From: an uncultured Chitinophagaceae bacterium
Lineage (GTDB): Bacteria > Bacteroidota > Bacteroidia > Chitinophagales > Chitinophagaceae
Length of the DNA: 64,000 nucleotides
Direction: 5' to 3'
NCBI GenBank assembly: GCA_963732885.1
Contig: CAVTBI010000014.1
Span: 130,558 to 194,557, forward strand
A program made the translations under genes and the position numbers. Positions 350 to 35,382 of the stretch are shown here, piece by piece. Numbering within the stretch: position 1 is the first letter of the stretch; the number at the start of each line of letters is the position of its first letter. The notes below the pieces were generated by a model, which worked only from the letters and a program-made list of their open reading frames with translations, was not told the origin of the DNA and did not search any database.

Positions 350-3300
350 ATGAATAATGAAAATGACACTTTAAAAGATTCTAAAGAAACCCCTCCAAAG
401 AGGAAGGAAGGGTATTTTACCAGATATAGAAGCCCGCTCGCTGTGGTCATCGCCGTAATCATTGTGGGTGGTATATTTGCTTATACCAAATTACAAACTT
501 CGCTTTTTCCTGAAATTACTTTTCCGAAAGTAAAGATCATAGCAGATGCGGGATTGCAGCCGGTTGACAGGATGATGGTTACCGTTACGCGGCCGTTAGA
601 ACTCGCTATTAAAAAAATTCCTGACCTGGTAGATATCCGCAGCACCACCAGCAGGGGAAGCTGTGAAATTTCTGCTTACCTGGATTGGAATGTCAATGTA
701 GATCTGAGTATGCAGAGATTGGAATCGCGCATTGCCGAAATAAGAAATACGCTGCCTCCCAATGTGAATATTACAGTTGAGAAAATGAATCCCTCCATTT
801 TGCCGGTAATGGGCTATTCGTTGGAAAGCAATTCTCTTTCGCCAATTGAATTGAAACAGTTGGCGGTTTATACCATTAAACCTTTTTTAAGCCAGGTGGC
901 CGGTGTGTCAGACATTGCCATCATGGGCGGCAAATATGAAGAATTTTGGGTGAAGCTGAATATGCAAAAAATGAGTACGCTTGGTATTACTCCTGATTCT
1001 GTAAACGCGGCACTTAGCAAAACTAATTTTATCAATTCAAATGGATATTTATCTGATTACAGATACCTCTATCTCACATTAACGGATGCTTCAATTGAAT
1101 CTTTGAAGGATTTGCAAAATATGGTGGTAGGCAGTAATGGCAGGCGGGTAGTTCTGCTTAAAGATATTTCAGATATAAAAATGAGGAAGGTGTTCAGTAT
1201 GTGAAGATCAATGCCAATGGAAAAGAAGGGGTATTGATTGCGGTGGTAAAACAGCCCAACAGTAACCTGGTGGATGTTTCTTCTCAAATGAAAGATAAGA
1301 TAGCCCAACTCAAAAATATCCTGCCAAAAGGTGTAACCATAAAGCCCTATTATATCCAGGCAGATTTTGTAAAAACGGTTGTCAGGAGTGTAACAGACAG
1401 TCTTTGGGTCGGGCTATTACTCGCGATTATAGTCGCCATTATTTTTCTTCGTTCTTTTAAAGCAAGCGCTACTATTTTAATCACGATTCCGGTAACGCTG
1501 GGGCTAACACTCATCGTTTTGTACATCGTGGGCTATACTTTAAACATCATGACACTCGGCGCCATAGCGGCTTCCATCGCTTTGATCATTGATGATGCGA
1601 TCGTGGTGATGGAACAAATTCATCGTACGCACGAGGAAAATCCGGACGAAGAATATAAGCATACTGTGCAAAATGCTATTCGTTACTTGTTTCCCGCGAT
1701 GGTGGGGTCTTCTATCAGTACCATCGTTATTTTCCTTCCTTTTATTTTAATGAGCGGCGTGGCAGGCGCGTATTTCAATGTGCTTACCAATACCATGATC
1801 ATTGCACTGGTTTGTTCATTCTTTGTCACCTGGATCTGCTTACCCGTTATCTATCTTCTTTTTTCAGGAAATAAAAAGAAGAAAAAGAAAGAAAAGAAAG
1901 TAGCGAAAGAAGCGAAACCTGAAAAGGTAACACGCCAGGGATGGGTAAAATGGTTTATCCTTCGCCCATGGATCAGTTTTATTTTTGTAGCCGGTTTAAT
2001 AGTTGCTATCATTTTAATATTACCTCGTCTGCAAACAGGTTTTCTTCCCCAGATGGATGAAGGAAGTATTGTGCTTGATTACACTTCTATTCCCGGAACT
2101 TCCCTGGAAGAAACCAACAGGGAATTACAACGCGGTAGATAAAATAATTACCTCAACGCCTGAAGTGAGCTGCTTATTCACGCCGTACCGGAACACAAAT
2201 GGGATTTTTTATTACAGAACCCAACGACGGGGATTATTTAATTCGAATTAAAAACAAAACGGAATAAAAGTACTGACCAGGTAATAGAAGAGATTCGTAA
2301 GCGGATCGAATCATCTCAGCCGGAACTGCGTGTTGATTTCGGGCAGGTGATAGGGGATATGCTGGGTGATTTAATGACTTCTGTGCAGCCTATTGAAATA
2401 AAGATCTTTGGAGATGACCCACAAAAACTTCATGATCTTTCCAAACAGGTAAGTTCTATTGTGGAAAATGTAAAAGGCACTGCTGATGTATTTGATGGAA
2501 TTGTAATTGCCGGGCCGTCTTTAACTGTTATTCCTGATTTTAAGAAAATAGCACAATACGGTATTACGCCTGCCAACCTCCAATTCCAGGTACAAACCGC
2601 GTTGGAAGGAAATGTAGCCGGAAATATTTTTGAAAAAAACAGTGGTGTATCCCATCAGGCTGGTTTATCCCGGAAGCAGAAACAGGACTTTGGAAGAATT
2701 GAAAAACCTAAAAATATTTTTACCTAACGGAAACCTGATGCCTATAAGTGAACTCGCGAAAATTGACATTAAAAGTGGCGCGGCTGAAATTCACAGGGAA
2801 AATCTTCAAACGATAGGAATCGTTTCTGCGCGCCTTGAAAACCGGGACCTTGGCAGTACCATAAAAGATATAAAGAGCCAAGTCGAGTAAAAAAATTCAT
2901 CTTCCCCAGGGATATAGCATTGAGTACGGTGGCGATTATGCCCAGCAGCAAAAATCTTTTTCTGAACTTTTGATGATCCTGATCTCTTCAAGCATTCTTG
3001 TGTTTGGGGTGATACTTTTTTTATTCAGAGATGTAAAACCTGCGATTACTGATTTTAATAATTGCGGTGTTGGGAATTTCCGGAAGTTACCTTGCGTTGT
3101 TTATTACAGGCACTCCTTTGAATGTGGGAAGCTATACCGGCCTTATCATGATCGTAGGAATTATTGGTGAAAACTCGATCTTCACTTTTTTGCAGTTTAA
3201 GGAAACGCTTGCTGATAAAAGTGTGGATGAATCTGTTGTATATGCCATTTCCACACGGCTTCGCCCTAAACTGATGACTGCGCTTGGGGCTATCATTGCC

Positions 3301-3465
3301 CTTATGCCTTTGGCTTTAGGGATCGGCGCCGGCGCTCAGCTTCATCAGCCTTTCGCGATAGCAGTGATCGGTGGCTTTATAATAGCGCTTCCCTTGTTGC
3401 TGATTGTGCTTCCTTCTATGTTGAGGTTGTTGTATAAAAATCGGAAAGGAAAAAGTAATAAGTAA
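350..3465 (+). CDS. CzcA/CusA/AcrB-family RND permease, split by about 7 single-base frameshifts (sequencing error or pseudogene)
   Basis: Successive ORFs 350-1204, 1201-2142, 2347-2727, 2630-2890, 2970-3170 and 3067-3465 join into one ~1040-aa protein with DDAIVVME, GFLPQMDEGS and RLRPKLMTALGAIIALMPLALG motifs. Confidence 0.88.
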
Positions 3466-3474
3466 GATGAGTAA

Positions 3475-3510
3475 TAGTAAACCAACAAATAAGCCCAATT
3501 TTTGTTTTAC
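3475..3510 (+). repeat. Copy of dispersed 36-bp bipartite motif
   Basis: TAGTAAACCAACAAATAAGCCCAATTTTTGTTTTAC; right end overlaps the CHAD-like stop codon. Confidence 0.75.
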
Positions 3511-4505
3511 GAATTAGAACCAGATAGCACAATGTGCTCTAAAATATCTTCACTAAAAAAAGTATTGCTTATATTTTGCGCCTGGTCAAAATCTGTAAAA
3601 TTGTTGGCTGGGTTTCGTTACATAGCGAATAGGCTAAAGAAGCTACATTTTTTTGGGCTTTATAAACATCAGAAATGCTTTGCTCAAGAAGTTCAATTTT
3701 GAGGCCGCTGTCTTTTAATTTCCCCAATTCTGAAATCATCCAGCTCAATGCGAAATAATAATTTTGGTTGAGAAGAATATGATCCTGTAATCCGCTTCCA
3801 TCAGGCATTTTATTGTAAGGCGAATTGATAATTTCAGGTGTAAGGTATTTGTTCAAAAACTCAGGTGGTTCGCCATCGGCTTTTAGTTCCATCAATCCAC
3901 GTAACGCCTGCGGGTAAATACTAAGCCATCTCAATTCGCGTCGTAGTTCATGAACATCTTTTTCAATATCAGTAAATTCTTTTGTTCGGCTCTTGTATTT
4001 TTTAATAATTTTTTCAATTTCATTTTGATAAACTTCTAATACCGCTACCGTATCATTTTTTTCATCAAACCATTCAATGGAATCTAGTTTTTTATAGATC
4101 TTTTTCAAGCGCTTTTTATGTTTGCCAATCCATTTTTCTTTTTGAAGGTGCTTATTGAATTCTTTTATTTTTTTATCCGTCTTTTCTTTTGCATAAAGTG
4201 ATAATTAATTCAGGGATATTTTTATCGTCAGCAAATTCTTTATAAAAGCCATCGTAATAATCGATCTGCCCGAGAAAATCTTCAATGTCTTTAAAAACAT
4301 TATTTATTTTTTTTATTTTTTGATGGGCATGTATTTTTTTATAAATCCTGCTAAATGCTTCCAGCATAAAAAGCGGCGTGCGCATGTCCTTGGAATAAAT
4401 AAAGCTTGCCGGGTCTTCTGTTGATGCGGCTTCTGTTAAGATGTTTTCAACTTTTGCAAGAAAATAAAGGAAGCGGCTTTTGCCAACCGGTACAAACTGG
4501 TCCAT
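3507..4505 (-). CDS. CHAD-domain-like (polyphosphate-binding) protein, 2 frameshifts
   Basis: ORFs 4173-4505 and 3569-4108 plus a C-terminus ending TAA at 3507; motifs FKDIEDFLGQIDYYD, VHELRRELRWLSIY and ISELGKLKD match the CHAD LG..D and H..R..R pattern. Confidence 0.6.
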
Positions 4506-4572
4506 ATGTACAAAAATTTAAAAAATGAGACACTCAATATACACAATAATAAAAAGGAGTATACATTAAATT

Positions 4573-5489
4573 TTATTTTCCACACGCTTTGCAATTGTCT
4601 GTAGTAAATTCAGTTTCAACAGTAATATGCCGGATGTTCATATGCTCAAGCCGGTGCTTAAGCGTATCTTTTATTGAAGTGATTTGGTCACTGCTTTCAT
4701 TGCAATCAACCACCATATGGGCGGTCATCGCGTTTTCTGTGGTGCTCATCGCCCACACATGAATATGATGAAGGTCTATTAATCCCATCAATCTTTTCTG
4801 CGTTCGTTTTATATCGTTGATGTCAATATCTTTTGGAACCGCATCCAGTGTAAGGGCAAGGCTTTCTTTTAATAAAGCCCCATGTGCCGGCCAGAATCAC
4901 CATCACTATAATGATGCTTATCACCGGGTCAATCCAATACAAACCGGTGAAAGTAAATTAAGAGGCCTCCGGCCATAATGCCCACACTTACCAGTCCATC
5001 AGCCAGCATGTGAAGGTAAGCGCCTTTTACATTCAGGTCATGTTTTTGATTTTTCATGAAAAGATAAGCCGTAATGAAATTTACCACAATGCCAATACCG
5101 CCAACGATCGCAATTGTTTTTCCCGGTAAGGGTACAGGATTAGAAAATCGTTGCATCGCTGCATAAGCGATGGCGCCAATGGAAATCAACAGGATAACCC
5201 CGATTAAAAGGGCGGCAAGAATAGTCGTTTTTCGATATCCGTAAGTATATTTGTCATTGGGTTTAATTTTCAACAGACGAAAAGCCAATAATGATAATGC
5301 CAGGCTGCCCACATCTGCAAGGTTGTGGCCAGCGTCTGATAAAAGGGACAAAGAACGAATGGAAAAGCCGATTACAGCTTCAATTACCACAAACAAGCTA
5401 TTGAGAATAATCCCAATCACCAGAGCGGCATTGACATTGGTAAGCCTTTCAAAATGGCCATGGCTATGGTGTGAATGATCGTGCTCCAT
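4573..5489 (-). CDS. Cation diffusion facilitator (CzcD/ZitB-like Zn/Co/Cd exporter), frameshifted
   Basis: His-rich N-terminus MEHDHSHHSHGH; LLSDAGHNLADV, GAYLHMLAD and C-terminal LHHIHVWAMSTTENAMTAH motifs; frameshifts near 4800-4950. Confidence 0.9.
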
Positions 5490-5508
5490 TTTTAATATAA
5501 AGTTGAGG

Positions 5509-5516
5509 CAAAGATA
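5509..5516 (-). promoter_or_regulatory. Bacteroidota -7 promoter box for the CDF gene
   Basis: TATCTTTG on minus strand, 20 nt upstream of the ATG. Confidence 0.6.
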
Positions 5517-5660
5517 TTTAATTAGGTAATTAGCCAATGTGAAAATGAGAAAATTTGATAATAAATAAAAAGCAGGTATGATAGAAATTATTATTTGCCA
5601 AAAAAGGTTTAATTATAATATATTAACTTGCAACCAATTCCTTTATCCAAATCAATTTTT

Positions 5661-6269
5661 ATGAAAATGGCGATGAAATGGGATACACCTGACGGGCACT
5701 CACCCGTAGTTCCTTTTTTCAATTCTGTTTCCCCCATTTCCAAAGGGGCTATCGAAACATTTGACAAACACACGTTCCCGGTTTTCCTGGAAAAGAAAAA
5801 GTTACTTTTAAAACCTGGCGTTATTGCAGATCATTTTTATTTTATATTAAAAGGAGTCATTCATGGGTATATTAAAGAAGAAGGGAAACAAATAACAACA
5901 TGGATAGAGGAGGAAAATGAAATTGTGGGTTCTATACGCACATTAGGAACCACCAAACCATGCGAGGAATACTTACAAGCGTTGGAAGATTGCGAATTAA
6001 TAGCCATACCCATTATTGTCACGGAAGAAGTTTTTGATAAATACCCAGAAACAAATGTGGTTGCGCGCCGTTTATGGGAACACAACTACCGTAGCGCGGA
6101 AGCACGAGCGTACTTAGGCCGCATCCCATCCGCTGAAAAGAAATACAAACAACTCATGAATACTCATCCGAACCTTATTAACCGGGTTTCTTTAAAATAC
6201 CTGGCTTCCTACTTGGGAATGACGGTTGAAACTTTGTGCCGTATCAGGGCACGCCTAAATAAGGGATGA
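5661..6269 (+). CDS. Crp/Fnr-family transcriptional regulator
   Basis: cNMP-binding region (YFILKGVIHGY...LQALEDCEL) and C-terminal HTH LASYLGMTVETLCRIR. Confidence 0.9.
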   Translation: MKMAMKWDTPDGHSPVVPFFNSVSPISKGAIETFDKHTFPVFLEKKKLLLKPGVIADHFYFILKGVIHGYIKEEGKQITTWIEEENEIVGSIRTLGTTKPCEEYLQALEDCELIAIPIIVTEEVFDKYPETNVVARRLWEHNYRSAEARAYLGRIPSAEKKYKQLMNTHPNLINRVSLKYLASYLGMTVETLCRIRARLNKG

Positions 6270-6275
6270 ACTTCT

Positions 6276-6388
6276 TTGTATAAATGTTGATTGCATAGCA
6301 AGTTTGGAGTTTTCCCATAGCCTTGTTTCTATCCACTATTTTAGAAATACAGTGAACAAATAAATTCGGGCGATTTTTGTTTTGGTAA
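6276..6388 (+). repeat. 113-bp direct repeat, copy A (contains first 7 codons of a methyltransferase on the minus strand, its leader and the 36-bp motif at 6350-6385)
   Basis: Manual alignment to 8216-8329: 74/82 columns identical up to CAGTGAA, more divergent in the motif spacer. Confidence 0.9.
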
Positions 6389-6394
6389 AATTAT

Positions 6395-6835
6395 TTAAGC
6401 CTGGAAAGCACCACTTTGAGTAAAATGTTTTGTTGCCATTAAAGAATTTTCTCCAACCATATTTTTCACTTCATCAATATTGATTTGAGAAATGATTTCA
6501 TCAGGAATTAAAATCTCAAATTCAAATTCGGGAAGGTGCAGCCGCACTTTATGGATGCTTCGCAAAGAATCGAAGGCTTTTATAAAATCAAGGGCGATTT
6601 TAGGCATTGCAATTCGCAGGCCGCTGTATTCATTATTTTCATAAATCCCGAAAGGGTAAATATGATGCGCCGTTACAAAAACATCGGGAAAAAGATCTTT
6701 CAATGCAAGGGCTATCGCACAATTATTTCCGATTTTTTCAACGTCATTGTGTGCCCCGCATTCCTGGCTCCTTTCGAGAATTTCTTTTGTTACTTTTATT
6801 TTGAAGTTAAACGCCATGCCTGCATTTTTTTCCAT
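6395..6835 (-). CDS. Hypothetical protein with CG...NNCAIA motif
   Basis: 146-aa ORF with coding-like composition; no family recognised with certainty. Confidence 0.7.
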   Translation of the reverse strand: MEKNAGMAFNFKIKVTKEILERSQECGAHNDVEKIGNNCAIALALKDLFPDVFVTAHHIYPFGIYENNEYSGLRIAMPKIALDFIKAFDSLRSIHKVRLHLPEFEFEILIPDEIISQINIDEVKNMVGENSLMATKHFTQSGAFQA

Positions 6836-6999
6836 TTAAAGGTAAGCGTTTTTTCTAATCTTTCAATTCACAACTTCAGTTTTAAGCGAGGGAAATGTTA
6901 GGTTAATGGATAGTTATAAGTTGCGTTTTTCAATTATTTTGACATGCTATTTGTAGTTTATTTTTTAGATTTTTTTTTTAAATATTAAACACAAATATT

Positions 7000-7515
7000 A
7001 TGAAAACTATATTATTAATGCTGGTATCAATATCATTATCGGTAGGGGTTTCAGCACAACGAAAGGGAGATTCTGATGCACACAATAGAAATTCTGAAGA
7101 AAGAAGTGAATACCATTCACGGGTTTATAATGTTCCTCTTTATTATGGATTGGGGTATAATTACTACCCTTACTATGGCTACTCTAATTTTGGCTATCCA
7201 TATTATGGTTATCCATATTACGGCTATCGATTCTGGAATAGAACTTCCCATAATAGTAACAAGGCAATTCAATATAAATTGTCGTTACAAATAAAAGCGA
7301 TTAAAATGGATTATAAAAACAAAATCAGGCAAGTAAGGCATGATAAAAGTTTAAGCCATTCGCAAAAAAAACAGAAAATACTTTCTTTAAAAACTGAAAG
7401 AAACCAGGGCATAGTTAATGCAGAAAAGGATTTTGTAAACCAGTTGAATATGGGCAATCAAAATCCGGGAACGAAAAGCAATCAGAAACCTGGTAATGGC
7501 AATACCACATCATGA
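7000..7515 (+). CDS. Secreted hypothetical protein with Tyr/Gly/Pro repeats
   Basis: Signal peptide MKTILLMLVSISLSVGVSA-Q; YYGYS-NFGYP-YYGYP-YYGYR pentapeptide repeats; basic helical C-terminus. Confidence 0.75.
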   Translation: MKTILLMLVSISLSVGVSAQRKGDSDAHNRNSEERSEYHSRVYNVPLYYGLGYNYYPYYGYSNFGYPYYGYPYYGYRFWNRTSHNSNKAIQYKLSLQIKAIKMDYKNKIRQVRHDKSLSHSQKKQKILSLKTERNQGIVNAEKDFVNQLNMGNQNPGTKSNQKPGNGNTTS

Positions 7516-7568
7516 ATGATTCATTATAATGAATGACTTAAAATAGAACCGTAAGAGAATTTCCAACG

Positions 7569-7602
7569 AAAAATAGCCGGACCAGAAGTGCGGCTATTTT
7601 TT
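7569..7602. terminator. Bidirectional intrinsic terminator between convergent genes
   Basis: AAAAATAGCCG-11 nt-CGGCTATTTTT. Confidence 0.8.
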
Positions 7603-7633
7603 ATAATTTAGTATCCGGTTTCAGAAAACGCCA

Positions 7634-8236
7634 TTAGTTTTTCATTAAAACCAACGTACTCATACAACGGATATTATTAACGTTTACTATTTTTAAAGGC
7701 TCTATAAAAGATAAATTATTCTCTTGCATGGCTTTGTCAAGAAGGGTAGGTGTTAAAAGGAACCTAACTGTTCCATCGGGAATATGATAAACGCCGTCTT
7801 CAATTAATTTCACCTTGTCTTCCATTCCTATAGTTGATGCCATTCTTATAAATAAAGAACCTTTTGGTTTTAAAACACGTACCAATTCTTTTACCATTTT
7901 ATAAAAATGTGGAGTAGATTCTGCAAAATGCAGAACAGCGCTGCTTATTACATGGCCGAAAAAATTATCTTCAAAAGGAAGCTGATCGGTTTCAGCTACC
8001 TGGAATCTTTCTGCCTTAAAATCCGGATGAACGGATTTTAAATAATTGACAGGAGTTTCATCTTTATCAATTCCATAAATATCAATTTCGTTTTTTAAAA
8101 ACCAAAATAGATTCTTTCCGCCACCACAACCGGCATCTAAGATTTTGTCAGTTGGTTTGTACCTGCCTTTCATGATTTGGTCAAGCAAATAAATGTCAGT
8201 GCTTCCAATTAGTTCTTGTATAGATGTTGATTGCAT
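7634..8236 (-). CDS. Class I SAM-dependent methyltransferase
   Basis: Motif I ILDAGCGGGKN; LPFEDNFF; RVLKPKG. Confidence 0.9.
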   Translation of the reverse strand: MQSTSIQELIGSTDIYLLDQIMKGRYKPTDKILDAGCGGGKNLFWFLKNEIDIYGIDKDETPVNYLKSVHPDFKAERFQVAETDQLPFEDNFFGHVISSAVLHFAESTPHFYKMVKELVRVLKPKGSLFIRMASTIGMEDKVKLIEDGVYHIPDGTVRFLLTPTLLDKAMQENNLSFIEPLKIVNVNNIRCMSTLVLMKN

Positions 8237-8329
8237 AGCAAGTTTTATATTTTCCCATTAGCCTTGTCTCTATCCACTATTTTAAAAATACAGTGAATAA
8301 AGGACTTCAGCAGATTTTTATTTCGGTAA
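8216..8329 (+). repeat. 113-bp direct repeat, copy B (36-bp motif at 8291-8326)
   Basis: See copy A; overlaps the start of the intact methyltransferase. Confidence 0.9.
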
Positions 8330-8407
8330 TGGCAATCGTTTTTTTATACACTCAACAAACACCGGGAGAGCGCTTGCTGAGAAAGGAAGGATTTAGGCGC
8401 ACTGATT

Positions 8408-9844
8408 TTATTTTGGTAAAATAGTAACTATTATTCTTTTATACCTTGATAAGTGGGGTTTTCCATTGTCTGTAACTTTCAAAATAAAATGAGCAGTTTC
8501 CTTTTTTTCAACCTCAGGAGCGATTATCCAAACACTGGGTTCATTTTCAGGGGAAGCAAGATTTATCAACTTTTGGTAAGTGCCTGCTTCGGGATAATTG
8601 AACCACAAATAGTTAAGATGATCTCCATCTGGATCTGTAGTGCCTACAGCACTTAAACTAAAACGCTGCCCCGATTTTACCGTAATTTCTTCGGGATTAT
8701 CCAAAACCACAACGGGAGGATGGTTGCATTCGCCATAGCTTTTTGTACACCACTCCATACGCGCAGCAAAGTCATTTTGAAAATCATCCCTCCACCGCCA
8801 CAAGGTTACTTTATTATCTTTAAAAGTAACGGTGTCTAATTTCACGCTACGCCCATAATCACCCGGGATAAAAGGCGTATAACTATCTACTGCATTGGCC
8901 CAGATTTTCCTTGTTTCAGGTTCAAATGGCACACCAGAATTACCTTTCTTTTGCTTTGAAAAATCGGGCTTGTACAATTCATACCTGCCACCCCATCCGC
9001 CCCAGTTGGGATGCTCCGGGTTATTCAGCCCATTTGGAATTAATGATAACCATGACGGAGTGTCCCCTTCCATTCCATAGGCAACATCGGGATATACGGC
9101 ACCAGAGAGGCCATGGCCTTGCTGAATATTATGCGCCAGCCAGGTATTACTAATTTCTTCGTTATTGATGCCTTTCACAAAACTAGTGATGGCAACCCAT
9201 GTTGCGCTGGCATAATCATCGCCCGGGCTAACTACGTAAAACAAACCAGGAAAATTATTTCTAATCCAAATGCCGCTGTCGTCCTGGTCGGATATAGAAT
9301 AAACCCTAAGTTTTGCAATTAATCTTTTTGCTTCAGCTTCTGTTTTTGTATTTTTTATTTTATACAATGCCTGGGCAAGCGTATTGGTTCCTCCCCATAC
9401 AGCTATGTACAGCGGGCGTTTATCATTTTCTTCAAGAACTTTTATTATCCAGTCAGATCCTTCTGAATCCTCACCCACGCCAACTCCCTGCATTCCATAC
9501 TTCGCCGGGCCTTGTTTAACCAGTGATAAAAGTGTTTTTAAATCAGGAAAGCCAGGCTCATTTTTATTGAGGTTGGGTTGTACTTTTCCATAAGCCCAGA
9601 TAACTCTTTTTATAGATTCAGGAGCAGTTTTTGTTTTTTGCCAAACCGATGTAGTAGCTATTAATCCTTTTATATCAATTTCATTGGAGTATAAAAAGAG
9701 CCGGACAAACGACTGTGTATCGTCAGGGTCTGCTCCAATATCTGACAAAATAATTACTCTATGTTTTTGATTTCCCTGTGCAAAAAGGGAAGGGGAAAAG
9801 TGCGTTAAAGAAAATAGCAGAAAAAAGAAAAAAAATACTCTCAT
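8408..9844 (-). CDS. Secreted DUF1593 / nucleoside-hydrolase-like protein with C-terminal Ig-like domain
   Basis: Signal peptide; SDIGADPDDTQSFVRLFLYSNE, WGGTNT, MEGDTPS, WGGWGGRY and NHPPVV motifs. Confidence 0.85.
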   Translation of the reverse strand: MRVFFFFFLLFSLTHFSPSLFAQGNQKHRVIILSDIGADPDDTQSFVRLFLYSNEIDIKGLIATTSVWQKTKTAPESIKRVIWAYGKVQPNLNKNEPGFPDLKTLLSLVKQGPAKYGMQGVGVGEDSEGSDWIIKVLEENDKRPLYIAVWGGTNTLAQALYKIKNTKTEAEAKRLIAKLRVYSISDQDDSGIWIRNNFPGLFYVVSPGDDYASATWVAITSFVKGINNEEISNTWLAHNIQQGHGLSGAVYPDVAYGMEGDTPSWLSLIPNGLNNPEHPNWGGWGGRYELYKPDFSKQKKGNSGVPFEPETRKIWANAVDSYTPFIPGDYGRSVKLDTVTFKDNKVTLWRWRDDFQNDFAARMEWCTKSYGECNHPPVVVLDNPEEITVKSGQRFSLSAVGTTDPDGDHLNYLWFNYPEAGTYQKLINLASPENEPSVWIIAPEVEKKETAHFILKVTDNGKPHLSRYKRIIVTILPK

Positions 9845-9905
9845 AATTACGTTATTGATTCTTAATTGTGGCCTGTTAATTTAAATTTTTGAACGATGCG
9901 GTTCT

Positions 9906-9967
9906 TATTCCCATTTCATTATTTTAAAAATACAGTAAACCAATAAATTTTGAAGATTTTATTTTAG
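9906..9967 (+). repeat. Third, internally deleted copy of the direct repeat, ending in the 36-bp motif (9933-9967)
   Basis: TTCCCAT..TATTTTAAAAATACAGTAAACCAATAAATTTTGAAGATTTTATTTTAG shares TTCCCAT and TATTTTAAAAATACAGT with copy B. Confidence 0.7.
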
Positions 9968-9989
9968 CTATTTCAGAAGAGAGCCGGGT

Positions 9990-10601
9990 TCAGGAAGAAA
10001 TACCTTTCATATATTCTGCAATTAATTTTTCATTGGTATCCTGGCTTTGTGAAAGCGAATTAATGATTTTAATCTTTTCACTTTCTGTTCGGTTTTGGCT
10101 TAATTTCTTCTTTGCCTGGAGTTCTGTAACCGTTATCTCAAAAGCTACAATTCCTTTGGCCATTCTTAATTTGTAATCTTCAGGAAATCCATTCCACTGC
10201 AGCCTGTAAGAAGGTTCATAGTTTTCGATAGTTCTTTCGAGTATCTCAATTGTCGTTTTATAATCGCTCGTTAATTCTACTTTTCCGTATGCGTGTATTG
10301 ATAGATAGTTCCAGGTCGGCACATTTAATTCTTCGTCGTAGTTTTTGGGTGATATGTAAGCATGAGGTTCACTGAAAATAACTAACACCGTTTGGTTCTC
10401 CACGTATTTCCAATGTTCATTCGCCTTTGCAAAGTGAGAAGCCAACACTATGTTCTCGTTTTTAAGTTCAACAATAAATGGAAGATGTGTTGCAACAGGA
10501 ATATTTTCTTTAGTTGATATAATTACCGCAAAACTAAAGCGCTGCATGAATTGCAGAATCTCATTGCGGCCGTTCATTGTATTTGCCGAAGGAATGTACA
10601 T
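9990..10601 (-). CDS. PaiB-like FMN-binding negative transcriptional regulator
   Basis: ATHLPF, SHFAKANEHW, HAYISPKNY and VPTWNY motifs. Confidence 0.9.
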   Translation of the reverse strand: MYIPSANTMNGRNEILQFMQRFSFAVIISTKENIPVATHLPFIVELKNENIVLASHFAKANEHWKYVENQTVLVIFSEPHAYISPKNYDEELNVPTWNYLSIHAYGKVELTSDYKTTIEILERTIENYEPSYRLQWNGFPEDYKLRMAKGIVAFEITVTELQAKKKLSQNRTESEKIKIINSLSQSQDTNEKLIAEYMKGISS

Positions 10602-10673
10602 TTTTTAAGTTTGCTAGCGGTTAGGCGTTTTTTTCTGTCGGTTGTTTAAATTCTTATTTTACTGTCTTGCTAC

Positions 10674-11153
10674 CTAATCTTTAGGTTCCCATAATTCAAT
10701 TTTGTTTCCTTCCATGTCAATGATGTGAATAAACTTTCCGTAATCATAAGTTTCCATTGTGTCAACAATTGTTACACCTTCTTTTTTTAGTTCTTCAACT
10801 AATGCTTCCAAATCAGCGACTCTGTAGTTAATCATAAAATCTTTTGTAGAAGGTTCAAAATATTTTGTCGTCTCGGCAAATGGGCTCCAGGTGGTAGAAC
10901 CTTTTTTAGTTGAGTCGGATTCTTCTCTCCATTCAAAAGTTGCCCCATACTCATTAGTATTTAAACCAAGATGAGTTTTATACCACTCTTTCATTTTTTT
11001 AGGGTCTTTGCATTTGAAAAAAATGCCCCCAATGCCTGTTACTTTTTTCATTGTTGCCTTGTTTTTAGTTTGATGAATTGTGATGGTTTTGAATGCGAAA
11101 CCTAATCCGAAAGTTGCCGCAAGTGCCAAAGTTATTAATATTGGCTTCTTCAT
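10674..11153 (-). CDS. VOC/glyoxalase family protein with N-terminal signal/TM segment
   Basis: KKVTGIGGIFFKCKDP ... YGKFIHIIDMEGNKIELWEP. Confidence 0.9.
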   Translation of the reverse strand: MKKPILITLALAATFGLGFAFKTITIHQTKNKATMKKVTGIGGIFFKCKDPKKMKEWYKTHLGLNTNEYGATFEWREESDSTKKGSTTWSPFAETTKYFEPSTKDFMINYRVADLEALVEELKKEGVTIVDTMETYDYGKFIHIIDMEGNKIELWEPKD

Positions 11154-11376
11154 TTTTGTCAAATTTGATGGGTAATAAATGTCGCCGTTTTTACGCTTGC
11201 CACTATTAGTACATATTTGGCAGGACTGAAAATAGAATTCCTTTCTGACCGAACCGTTGCCAAATTTATAATTAAAAGTTCATTGTTATTACGATTGCTT
11301 AAAAGATTTTCGTCAGATGAAACTATTATTGAAACATGCACCACTGCTGATTGTTAGCAGATTTTTTTCTGTCCAT

Positions 11377-11405
11377 AAAAAAACCGGTGCAAATCTTTAC
11401 ACCGG
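11377..11405 (-). terminator. Intrinsic terminator of mdh
   Basis: CCGGTG/CACCGG stem followed by a T7 tract on the minus strand. Confidence 0.7.
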
Positions 11406-11438
11406 CTTTACTTATAACTTATAACTTTCGACTCAACA

Positions 11439-12371
11439 CTACTTCAATCCTTCCAACGCCGCATTCATATTTCTAACAGCTTCAGCGCTCTTGTTGAATT
11501 TTGCCTGTTCTTCATCGTTAAGGTGGAAATCAATTATTTTTTCCCATCCATTTTTTCCTATTACTACCGGCACGCCGATACAAATATCTTTTTGTCCGTA
11601 TTCGCCGTCAAGCATTACGCAACATGGGATTAATTTCTTTTCATCGCGCACTATTGCTTCTACCAATGTAGCGCCTGCAGCGCCGGGAGCATACCATGCG
11701 CTGGTACCTAATAATTTGGTAAGTGTTGCACCTCCAACCATTGTGTCAGCAGCTACTTTATTTAAAGCCGCTTCATCCAAATAATTGGAAACCGGTGTTC
11801 CCTGGTACGTGGCTAATCTGGTAAGAGGGATCATGGTAGTGTCACCATGACCGCCAATCACTACTCCCTGTAAATCCTGTGAAGAAACATTCATCGCCTG
11901 CGACAAAAAATATTTAAACCTTGAACTATCCAATAATCCACCCATACCAATCACGCGGTTTTTAGGAAGCCCGGTTGATTTTAAAGTGAGGTAAGTCATG
12001 GTGTCCATCGGGTTGCTGATCACTACAATAATGGCATCGGGCGACTGGTCCAATATTTTTGAGGTAACATCTTTTACAATGCCAGCATTGATGCCGATGA
12101 GTTCTTCACGTGTCATTCCGGGTTTACGTGGAATGCCTGAAGTGATCACCACCACATTGCTTCCTTTGGTTTTAGAATAATCATTCGTGCTACCGATAAT
12201 TTTGGTATCGCTTCCCAGCATGGTGGCACTCTGCAAAAAATCCATCGCTTTTCCTTCGGTAATTCCTTCTTTAATGTCGAGCATTACCAGTTCTTCACAA
12301 AGTTCTTTGCGGGCAATGTTGTCGGCACAGGTAGCGCCAACTGCACCGGCGCCTACTACGGTTACTTTCAT
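11439..12371 (-). CDS. mdh: Malate dehydrogenase (LDH-like)
   Basis: GAGAVG Rossmann motif, PRKPGMTREEL, SNPMD, GGHGD. Confidence 0.93.
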   Translation of the reverse strand: MKVTVVGAGAVGATCADNIARKELCEELVMLDIKEGITEGKAMDFLQSATMLGSDTKIIGSTNDYSKTKGSNVVVITSGIPRKPGMTREELIGINAGIVKDVTSKILDQSPDAIIVVISNPMDTMTYLTLKSTGLPKNRVIGMGGLLDSSRFKYFLSQAMNVSSQDLQGVVIGGHGDTTMIPLTRLATYQGTPVSNYLDEAALNKVAADTMVGGATLTKLLGTSAWYAPGAAGATLVEAIVRDEKKLIPCCVMLDGEYGQKDICIGVPVVIGKNGWEKIIDFHLNDEEQAKFNKSAEAVRNMNAALEGLK

Positions 12372-13299: not shown

Positions 13300-13355
13300 C
13301 AGAAACAAACCTGCCTACCGGCCAGGCAGGCTTTTAATAAGGATTTTTATTTTGA
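13300..13355 (+). repeat. 36-bp motif interrupted by palindromic REP-like unit CCTGCCTACCGGCCAGGCAGG (13310-13330)
   Basis: Removing 13310-13330 leaves CAGAAACAAACTTTTAATAAGGATTTTTATTTTGA. Confidence 0.8.
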
Positions 13356-34542: not shown

Positions 34543-35382
34543 ATGAATGAGCATTTTTTTATTTACAATGATCATTTTTTTCGTGCAGGCACACCTGTTA
34601 TAATTTCTCAAAACCGTTCGTTCCGCTATGGAGACGGGCTGTTTGAAACAATGAGGATGTACAACGGCAAAATCCTTAATGCTGATTTTCATTTTGAAAG
34701 GTTATTTTCCGGATTGAAAATTTTACAGTTTGATATTCCTGCGTATTTTTCTTCAGAATATTTTACAAATACAGTAAACAAACTTTTATTAAAGAATTCC
34801 ATTTTAAAAAATGCAAGAATTCGGTTAATGGTTTTTCGTGGCGAAGAAGGAATTTTTGATATTGAAAATAATTCTACAAATTATATTATTGAAACTTTTC
34901 CTTTTTCTGAAAAAATTGAATTAAATGAAAAAGGGTTAGAATTAGATATTTTCCCCGATGCAAGAAAAAGTTGTGATTTATTTTCTAACTTAAAATCAAA
35001 TAATTATCTCCCTTCCGTAATGGCAGCCAGGTTTGCAAATAAAAATAATTGGGATGACGCCATTATTTTAAATGCTTTTGAAAGAATTTGTGAATCTGCA
35101 ATAGCCAATATTTTTATAATCCAAGGCGATGAAATTTGTACACCTCCTTTATCAGAAGGCTGTGTGGCTGGCACAATGCGGCGATGGATGCTGGAAAAAT
35201 TTGATTTGGAAAATTATGGCTTTGTTGAAAAACCACTAACAGTGACTGATCTTTTAAATGCAGATGAACTGTTTCTTACCAATTCAATTTATCAATTGAA
35301 ATGGGTGCAAAAGTTTAGAAAAAAATCCTATCAGAATCTAAAAATAAAGGAAATCTTTAAACAGGTTATTCAAAATATTTGA
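34543..35382 (+). CDS. Aminotransferase class IV (PabC/IlvE-like)
   Basis: YGDGLFETMR, HFERL, KSNNY, ESAIANIF, GCVAGTMR. Confidence 0.9.
   Translation: MNEHFFIYNDHFFRAGTPVIISQNRSFRYGDGLFETMRMYNGKILNADFHFERLFSGLKILQFDIPAYFSSEYFTNTVNKLLLKNSILKNARIRLMVFRGEEGIFDIENNSTNYIIETFPFSEKIELNEKGLELDIFPDARKSCDLFSNLKSNNYLPSVMAARFANKNNWDDAIILNAFERICESAIANIFIIQGDEICTPPLSEGCVAGTMRRWMLEKFDLENYGFVEKPLTVTDLLNADELFLTNSIYQLKWVQKFRKKSYQNLKIKEIFKQVIQNI

Follow-up and report, generated by a model that had tools for sequence, protein, structure and literature searches.

When genes and repeats alternate along a bacterial contig, are the repeats the boundaries of mobile gene cassettes, or can ordinary recombination leave the same pattern? 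The question is raised by positions 6276-9967 of a 64,000-nucleotide stretch of contig CAVTBI010000014.1 (assembly GCA_963732885.1, an uncultured Chitinophagaceae bacterium; the whole stretch is called the window below), in which three copies of a repeat, A, B and C, lie between a Crp/Fnr-family regulator gene (crp) and the malate dehydrogenase gene (mdh). An earlier reading, made from the sequence only, had described a cassette-like array with gene modules inserted or excised one after another at the repeat. Our comparison with related genomes and loci, which were found by a whole-genome DNA search and a protein-based locus search and are denoted L037, L038, G015, G037 and G005, leads to another answer: the 'array' is probably a scar that ordinary homologous recombination left downstream of mdh, in a neighbourhood where genes turn over fast. 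The three copies are built up as follows.

6276..6296, minus strand: copy A stub, MQSTFIQ, the first seven codons of a second methyltransferase copy (20/21 identical to 8216-8236)
6297..6333, minus strand: copy A copy of the methyltransferase 5' untranslated region (UTR) and promoter region (32/37 identical to 8237-8274; nowhere else in the genome)
6334..6348, no strand assigned: copy A 15-nt extension CACTATTTTAGAAAT, orthologous to the L037 extension behind the gene hyp146, including its G variant
6349..6384, plus strand: copy A 36-nt motif, the resident copy behind hyp146 (position-weight scan; L037 alignment)
8237..8274, minus strand: copy B methyltransferase 5' UTR (alignment to A)
8275..8325, no strand assigned: copy B extension (8275-8289) and 36-nt motif (8290-8325)
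9917..9967, no strand assigned: copy C extension (9917-9931) and 36-nt motif (9932-9967), upstream of a DUF1593 gene

The repeat has three layers. The 36-nt motif, which is dispersed throughout the genome, is present in all copies; the 15-nt extension CAYTATTTTAAAAAT (15-25 nt in its extended form) stands directly 5' of the motif in A, B and C; the methyltransferase 5' UTR and start are found in A and B only. Extension plus motif, ~55 nt, is called R here and is a local subfamily of the 36-nt motif: among ~1,380 genomic motif copies, A, B and C are the only ones with the extension beside them at no more than two mismatches. A weak fourth R-like copy, with three mismatches in the extension, occurs at 34756-34809 (GAATATTTTACAAATACAGTAAAC...), in or just upstream of an open reading frame (ORF) at 34543-35382. 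The extension and the 5' arm of the motif in copy A form a palindrome, CACT-N13-AGTG, and on the gene strand R in both A and B folds as a hairpin of 9-12 bp (-11.7 and -14.6 kcal/mol).

Copies A (6276-6388) and B (8216-8329) are direct repeats with 74 of 82 columns identical, as first reported, and the sum holds segment by segment: 20/21 in the first seven methyltransferase codons, 18/22 and 14/15 in the 5' UTR (with a single 1-nt indel), 14/15 in the extension and 8/9 in the first nine bases (5' arm) of the motif. Stub, UTR and extension together give 66/73, the period is 1,940-1,941 nt, and the leftmost 59 nt of the two copies are each other's sole match in the 5.25-Mb genome (88%, E=1.4e-8). 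Homology specific to A and B is limited to 6276-6357. Inside the motif the two agree at 8/9 positions of the 5' arm, 9/15 of the middle and 10/12 of the 3' arm, and random pairs from ~1,300 genomic motif copies agree on average at 7.2/9, 8.0/15 and 8.5/12, respectively; the similarity of A to B in the motif is not above that of random genomic copies. The true paralogy of A and B is thus ~82 nt long, and the final ~31 nt of what had been called a 113-bp repeat show a family-level likeness only.

Copy C is indeed a third copy, and what it has in common with A and B is the 15-nt extension and the motif (54 nt in total, 9917-9970). The internal deletion that had been proposed for it rests on a 7-nt match, TTCCCAT, and is unnecessary, since the orthologue of C in G015, which sits upstream of a DUF1593 fragment, aligns to A and B without the gap. 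At 8405-8423 the last codons and stop of the DUF1593 gene (GATTTTATTTTGGTAAAAT) are closely similar to the 3' arm and flank of copy A at 6372-6393 (GATTTTTGTTTTGGTAAAAT); this could be chance, a half-motif or the trace of a duplication boundary.

The coding part of the earlier description stands. Copy A carries ATG CAA TCA ACA TTT ATA CAA (MQSTFIQ) on the minus strand, with homology that ends 0-6 nt from the crp stop codon (6267-6269); past these codons the stub continues out of frame into the 3' end of the convergent crp gene. Copy B carries the true start (MQSTSIQ) of a 200-aa class I S-adenosylmethionine (SAM) methyltransferase. This gene is single copy, with one tblastn match in the genome, and a whole-genome search found no second methyltransferase body anywhere. 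Among the available starts the stub is nearest to that of copy B (relatives have MQPTPIQ, MQPSSIQ and MNPITIQ), a likeness that is consistent with duplication or conversion within the lineage.

The two halves of copy A match different partners. From its right-hand end, A is colinear with L037 at ~90% identity through the C-terminus and stop of hyp146, the flank ATAATTTTACC, the motif 3' arm, spacer and 5' arm, and the extension. The spacer of A (CGCCCGAA) and the spacer behind hyp146 in L037 (CGCCTGAA) are orthologous, and spacer plus right flank (GGTAAAATTAT) are identical or near-identical in the two. The homology to L037 covers the variant base at 6344 and then ends; the UTR and stub match only B. 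From these alignments, the right half of A is the resident motif of the hyp146 site and the left half a copy of the methyltransferase upstream region. Such a hybrid is the product expected from an unequal crossover between the R copy in B and the R copy behind hyp146. It also accounts for the divergence between A and B being concentrated in the motif spacer, as right of the crossover the motif in A and the motif in B are simply not the same copy. The proposal that the divergent spacer is a strand-exchange region does not hold up: the spacer is the least conserved part of the motif across all ~1,400 copies, and that of A is orthologous to the hyp146 motif of L037. Copy A has what marks a relic of tandem duplication, namely a direct-orientation paralogue of a coding start with its upstream region and a hybrid junction repeat.

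On this evidence, a two-step history can be proposed. An unequal crossover between R(B), upstream of the methyltransferase gene, and the resident R behind hyp146 would have given a 1.94-kb tandem duplication of [R-UTR-methyltransferase-hyp171-hyp146], with copy A as the hybrid junction: stub, UTR, extension and 5' arm paralogous to B, and spacer, 3' arm and flank from the original hyp146-site motif. The redundant methyltransferase copy would then have been cut to 7-9 codons by a further rearrangement or deletion, and the same event would have joined the locus to the czcD-crp gene pair exactly at the crp stop codon. Copy C would be an older R paralogue that belongs to the DUF1593 upstream region. 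We infer the order of these events, and recombination of RecA type rather than site-specific recombination. A variant in which an older duplication was resolved differently between species is equally compatible with the data, since G015 keeps hyp149-R-methyltransferase where this genome keeps hyp146-R-stub.

The genes of the locus are listed below; those between the repeats were confirmed from ORFs and Pfam matches as they had originally been described.

5628..6269, plus strand: Crp/Fnr-family regulator (cNMP_binding; Pfam, NCBIfam), the stop codon of which is the left breakpoint of copy A
6395..6835, minus strand: hyp146, conserved hypothetical, the pivot gene of the locus in all relatives
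7000..7515, plus strand: hyp171, secreted tyrosine/glycine-rich hypothetical on the opposite strand (ORF; same position in G037, L037 and L038)
7634..8236, minus strand: intact class I SAM-dependent methyltransferase (Pfam Methyltransf_11/25)
8408..9844, minus strand: DUF1593/Sde182-like gene (PF07632 and PF21027)
9990..11162, minus strand: PaiB-like FMN_bind_2 gene (9990-10601) and VOC/glyoxalase gene (10674-11162) (Pfam)
11378..12371, minus strand: mdh and its terminator hairpin (11378-11410), which are conserved and anchor the variable region on the right

Sister species differ in what follows mdh, and in which order:

G005: mdh - hyp146 - 119aa - lipoprotein
G037, L038, L037: mdh - methyltransferase - hyp171 (opposite strand) - hyp146 - motif - (137aa) - lipoprotein
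G015: mdh - 147aa - 125aa - R - DUF1593 (first ~80 codons only) - hyp149 - R - methyltransferase - lipoprotein
This genome: mdh - VOC - PaiB - R(C) - DUF1593 - R(B) - methyltransferase - hyp171 - hyp146 - R(A) - methyltransferase stub, then, across the breakpoint, crp - czcD

L037 and L038 are the nearest relatives by the identity of mdh (92.5% and 90.9%, followed by 90.8% for G015, 89.5% for G037 and 83.8% for G005). For the methyltransferase gene the nucleotide identities are 91.9% (L038), 90.8% (L037), 86.9% (G015) and 86.5% (G037). Deep paralogy of the G015 gene relative to the others was considered and is not seen, as the identities track those of mdh; by the same numbers, which do not discriminate it, an ancient two-copy state of the methyltransferase would be equally possible. 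Exact-protein look-up of the methyltransferase and hyp146 for contigs of the same species returned no record. The hyp146 protein has no Pfam or NCBIfam match, and its orthologues adjoin mdh or the methyltransferase gene in G005, G015, G037, L037 and L038. The DUF1593 gene is cut to ~80 codons in G015 and is missing from the locus in L037, L038, G037 and G005.

Modules have therefore been gained, lost and reordered downstream of mdh between sister species, in partial agreement with the sequential insertion and excision first proposed, but the breakpoints lie mostly off the repeats. The alleles that had been predicted, lacking exactly 6389-8329 or 8330-9967, are not found in G005, G015, G037, L037 or L038, and no repeat-to-repeat unit was seen to be missing from any of these relatives. 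A 3.1-kb block, VOC-PaiB-R-DUF1593-R-UTR, is present here and missing in L037, L038 and G037; it runs from the mdh terminator hairpin to the methyltransferase ATG, with neither end at R, and in these three relatives the methyltransferase gene is preceded by that hairpin instead of the 5' UTR of copy B. Further breakpoints also fall off the repeats: in G015 the DUF1593 gene is cut internally, and here the break is at the crp stop codon. Of the proposed module exchange at the repeat, what stands is that copy A sits at a duplication junction; no tyrosine recombinase is found within 55 kb.

The left breakpoint is peculiar to this genome. The closest contigs that carry crp (86-89% protein identity), as well as G035 and G037, have the order 332aa - czcD - crp - (111aa) - PAS/histidine kinase; crp in relatives is followed by the 111-aa gene and/or the PAS-histidine kinase and never by the methyltransferase locus. 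The orthologue of this kinase is on contig C12 of the present genome, and the lipoprotein gene that trails hyp146 in relatives is on C4. No methyltransferase remnant was found downstream of crp in relatives, and no R or methyltransferase remnants beside the displaced kinase (C12) or lipoprotein (C4) genes; a simple reciprocal inversion, which we considered, is unsupported in the light of these negatives. The crp/stub junction is probably a lineage-specific rearrangement or deletion that ends exactly at a functional gene; it could also be an assembly chimera. Several genes to the left of crp look disrupted: a czcD-type cation efflux gene runs over two frames (4576-4878 and 4932-5444), a 332-aa gene is in two pieces, 3569-4108 and 4173-4505, and a resistance-nodulation-division (RND) pump is broken up into four or more ORFs (350-3465). 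These apparent disruptions, which fall in 350-5537, reflect either local gene decay or assembly indel errors.

Five points weigh against the duplication scar as we have described it. The R variants are slightly mosaic, with the G at 6344 resembling L037 and CAGTGAA at 6350-6356 resembling B, so that the crossover point is only bracketed and gene conversion is possible. The permuted order, with the methyltransferase gene before or after hyp146, is equally expected from excision of a circle and its re-integration at R. In sister species, unrelated genes (TfoX-like and GNAT) likewise have the extension and motif upstream of them, which hints at a function or a mobility of R itself. The spacer of the motif at the hyp146 site differs among L037, L038 and G037, a faster turnover than simple descent predicts. 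Finally, the crp/stub junction and the repeat spacing come from a metagenome-assembled genome.

How much the repeats can say about boundaries depends on the 36-nt motif itself. It is bipartite (ACAGTAAACMAAYAAAT-N-GATTTTTATTTT; in full, ACAGTAAAC(C/A)AA(C/T)AAATAA, ~4-6 variable nucleotides, then GATTTTTATTTT(G)), and a position-weight scan gave 1,383 copies at ≥16 bits in the genome compared with five in a reversed-sequence null. Most copies (84%) lie outside crude ORF calls, in both orientations and typically 0-60 nt from a stop codon; the motif is present in 47% of convergent, 28% of divergent and 19% of tandem intergenic regions. In a genome like this, almost any two neighbouring genes are 'delimited' by the motif. 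The distance to start codons shows no peak genome-wide, and the motif was rejected as a promoter. No hairpin potential was detected (mean minimum free energy of 300 copies, -2.25 kcal/mol; shuffles, -2.76 kcal/mol), and the motif was rejected as a hairpin terminator or repetitive extragenic palindromic (REP) element because it does not fold. An Rfam scan of the whole window matched no family, and the motif shows no consistent replication-strand bias.

The motif is confined to one subclade of the genus (the relatives are named Ginsengibacter, family Chitinophagaceae, by the sources). Of ~37 genus members sampled, only ~9 have it in its hundreds, with 626 hits in this genome in the genus-wide count, 515, 412, 368, 336, 199, 148 and 88 in others and ~35 in a ninth; it is at background level in the ~28 other members and in 25 other families of the order. 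The spacer differences at the orthologous hyp146 site indicate that motif copies turn over or convert quickly.

Further arrangements of the motif were seen elsewhere. Positions 8,700-25,400 of contig C5 hold ~14 copies on the same strand with a common spacer, TTCCCC(C/G)GATTC, each followed by GCTAACTTTATGCA, an ATG and a short 5' stub of differing genes (for example the Vsr-like MADVHSKEIRS...); these units are interleaved with GC-rich hairpins, partly in 261-nt tandem units, and there are few long ORFs. Motif-plus-stub scars are thus not unique to the locus studied here. On contig C12 (93,000-241,000) at least 16 paralogous histidine-kinase genes contain an in-frame, motif-like 36-nt stretch (GCAGTAAACSAACAAAAAAGCNRGAATCTTATTTCG, 33-38 bits) within the HATPase domain (...NAFYAVNQQKSRNLISYEP...). 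Whether captured motifs or a striking coincidence, these stretches inflate the count of 'intragenic' motifs. One-sided flank homology of motif pairs was dropped as a signature of motif-mediated junctions because many pairs come from this paralogous family. In G015 (contig C71, L011, 3722-3772) the motif after an ABC-transporter stop codon is interrupted past CAGTAAAC by a palindrome, TTGCCTACCGGCAGGCAA, at the same motif offset as in an interrupted copy at 13300-13355 of the window.

The alternative that survives best, although we consider it unlikely as the explanation of the array, is that R acts in cis as an operator or promoter module with the palindrome CACT-N13-AGTG / TATTTT-N-AAAATA at its core. 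Selection would have kept it in front of the methyltransferase, DUF1593 and further genes, the adjacent Crp/Fnr-family regulator would possibly read it, and A would be a stranded copy of the module. This reading concerns why the repeats stay similar and is compatible with a duplication scar. Extension plus motif precedes start codons by 0-100 nt, with the gene always reading away from the ACAG end, at the methyltransferase gene (B), the DUF1593 gene (C and G015), the methyltransferase and TfoX-like genes of G015, a GNAT gene in G005 and a 149-aa ORF in G037; in G005 (contig C105, L027, 3600-3660) it abuts the ATG of the GNAT acetyltransferase without a spacer (…GGTTTACTGTATTTTTAAAAT-ATG). Between species R is about as well conserved as coding sequence, A and B can form the gene-strand hairpin described above, and three R copies lie beside a crp-family gene. 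The consensus for CRP is TGTGA-N6-TCACA and that for FNR is TTGAT-N4-ATCAA; the palindrome of R matches neither. The R copies of G015, G005 and G037 are not beside crp, which is joined to the locus only in this genome. Reading the sequence of R also revealed no Bacteroidota -33/-7 promoter consensus (TTTG / TAnnTTTG), and across the genome the motif keeps close to gene 3' ends and shows no preferred distance from starts. R may plausibly have a regulatory role.

A cassette system, in which R or the motif would be the site of lineage-specific site-specific recombination machinery that moves gene modules as circles, is quite improbable. It would account for the gene order being circularly permuted around R (methyltransferase-hyp171c-hyp146-R against hyp149-R-methyltransferase), and the restriction of the motif to ~9 sister species with hundreds of copies each, the small palindromic unit at a fixed position in the motif on contig C71 of G015 and the C5 array of motifs with gene 5' stubs can all be cited for it. 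The whole-genome search, however, placed the nearest PF00589 match at C14:75716, 55 kb outside the start of the window, and none in the window; Y1 transposases are found equally in genomes with and without the motif and are mostly unflanked by it. The motif itself has neither a hairpin nor inverted-repeat symmetry, most inter-genome breakpoints are off R, no R-to-R deletion allele occurs in six related loci, the genes do not all point the same way (hyp171 is encoded on the opposite strand), and the spacer divergence is accounted for by non-orthology. We would likewise give little credence to the motif and its R variant as the crossover site of an unrecognized recombination or mobility system in one Chitinophagaceae subclade; were it true, the permuted methyltransferase/hyp146 order, the stub in A, the palindromes at a fixed offset and the C5 array would be footprints of module shuffling at the motif and not of generic homologous recombination.

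Least probable of all is an assembly artefact, with the crp/stub junction or the whole of copy A as a chimeric join, for example between strains of differing arrangement: the junction is seen only in this genome, crp and hyp146 have other neighbours in all relatives and the frameshifted appearance of the nearby czcD, 332-aa and RND pump genes suggests indel errors or decay, but A, which is unlike B at ~10% of positions and also distinct from every relative, is not a collapsed or duplicated read artefact, the junction is not in a repeat of the kind where assemblers usually mis-join, and the right half of A is colinear with hyp146 as in L037, on a contig of 232 kb.

Read as a duplication scar, the locus would be a clean example of an abundant short intergenic repeat seeding a local duplication and leaving behind a hybrid junction and a gene stub. 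It shows how rapidly the surroundings of mdh, a core gene, are remodelled between species that are ~8-10% apart, and it warns against taking 'repeat - gene - repeat' for a cassette array where nearly every intergenic region has the same motif.

Among known systems, the closest parallel is with the REP-mediated tandem duplications of enterobacteria, in which unequal crossover at short dispersed repeats is followed by decay of one copy. Direct repeats, a fixed period, a hybrid junction, a gene copy cut to a 5' stub and a high-copy intergenic substrate are all found here; the substrate differs in being a non-palindromic bipartite motif with a local 15-25-nt extension, and the second copy was apparently lost via a rearrangement that brought in an unrelated gene pair. 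The motif invites comparison with the REP elements, bacterial interspersed mosaic elements (BIMEs) and REPINs (PMC2817692, PMC3116915, PMC3733652), which it resembles in its length of ~36 nt, its hundreds to more than 1,000 copies, its almost exclusively intergenic position in both orientations, its restriction to one lineage and its enrichment between convergent genes and near 3' ends. Unlike them it has no palindromic stem and no GTAG or CGTC tag; PF01797 (Y1/RAYT) genes occur in motif-bearing and motif-free genomes, and one of the five checked here has a motif within 1.5 kb. As in integron arrays, small genes unrelated in function alternate with short repeats whose ends are conserved and whose centre varies, and the gene content differs between relatives. 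The locus departs from such arrays in most other respects: it has no intI or other recombinase within 55 kb and no adjacent IntI-type recombinase with attI, its repeats show no attC folding, no presence/absence units bounded by the repeats were found and the genes are not co-oriented, and its repeats stand upstream of genes, include promoter-proximal UTR and mostly do not coincide with the breakpoints. Hot spots of gene gain and loss offer a further likeness, with mdh and its terminator as the conserved anchor and five gene contents downstream of it in six related genomes, although here the left anchor is not conserved and the locus is joined to czcD-crp. The best explanation is that a repeat-mediated duplication left its scar in a gene-turnover hot spot, a fresh case of a familiar kind of event.

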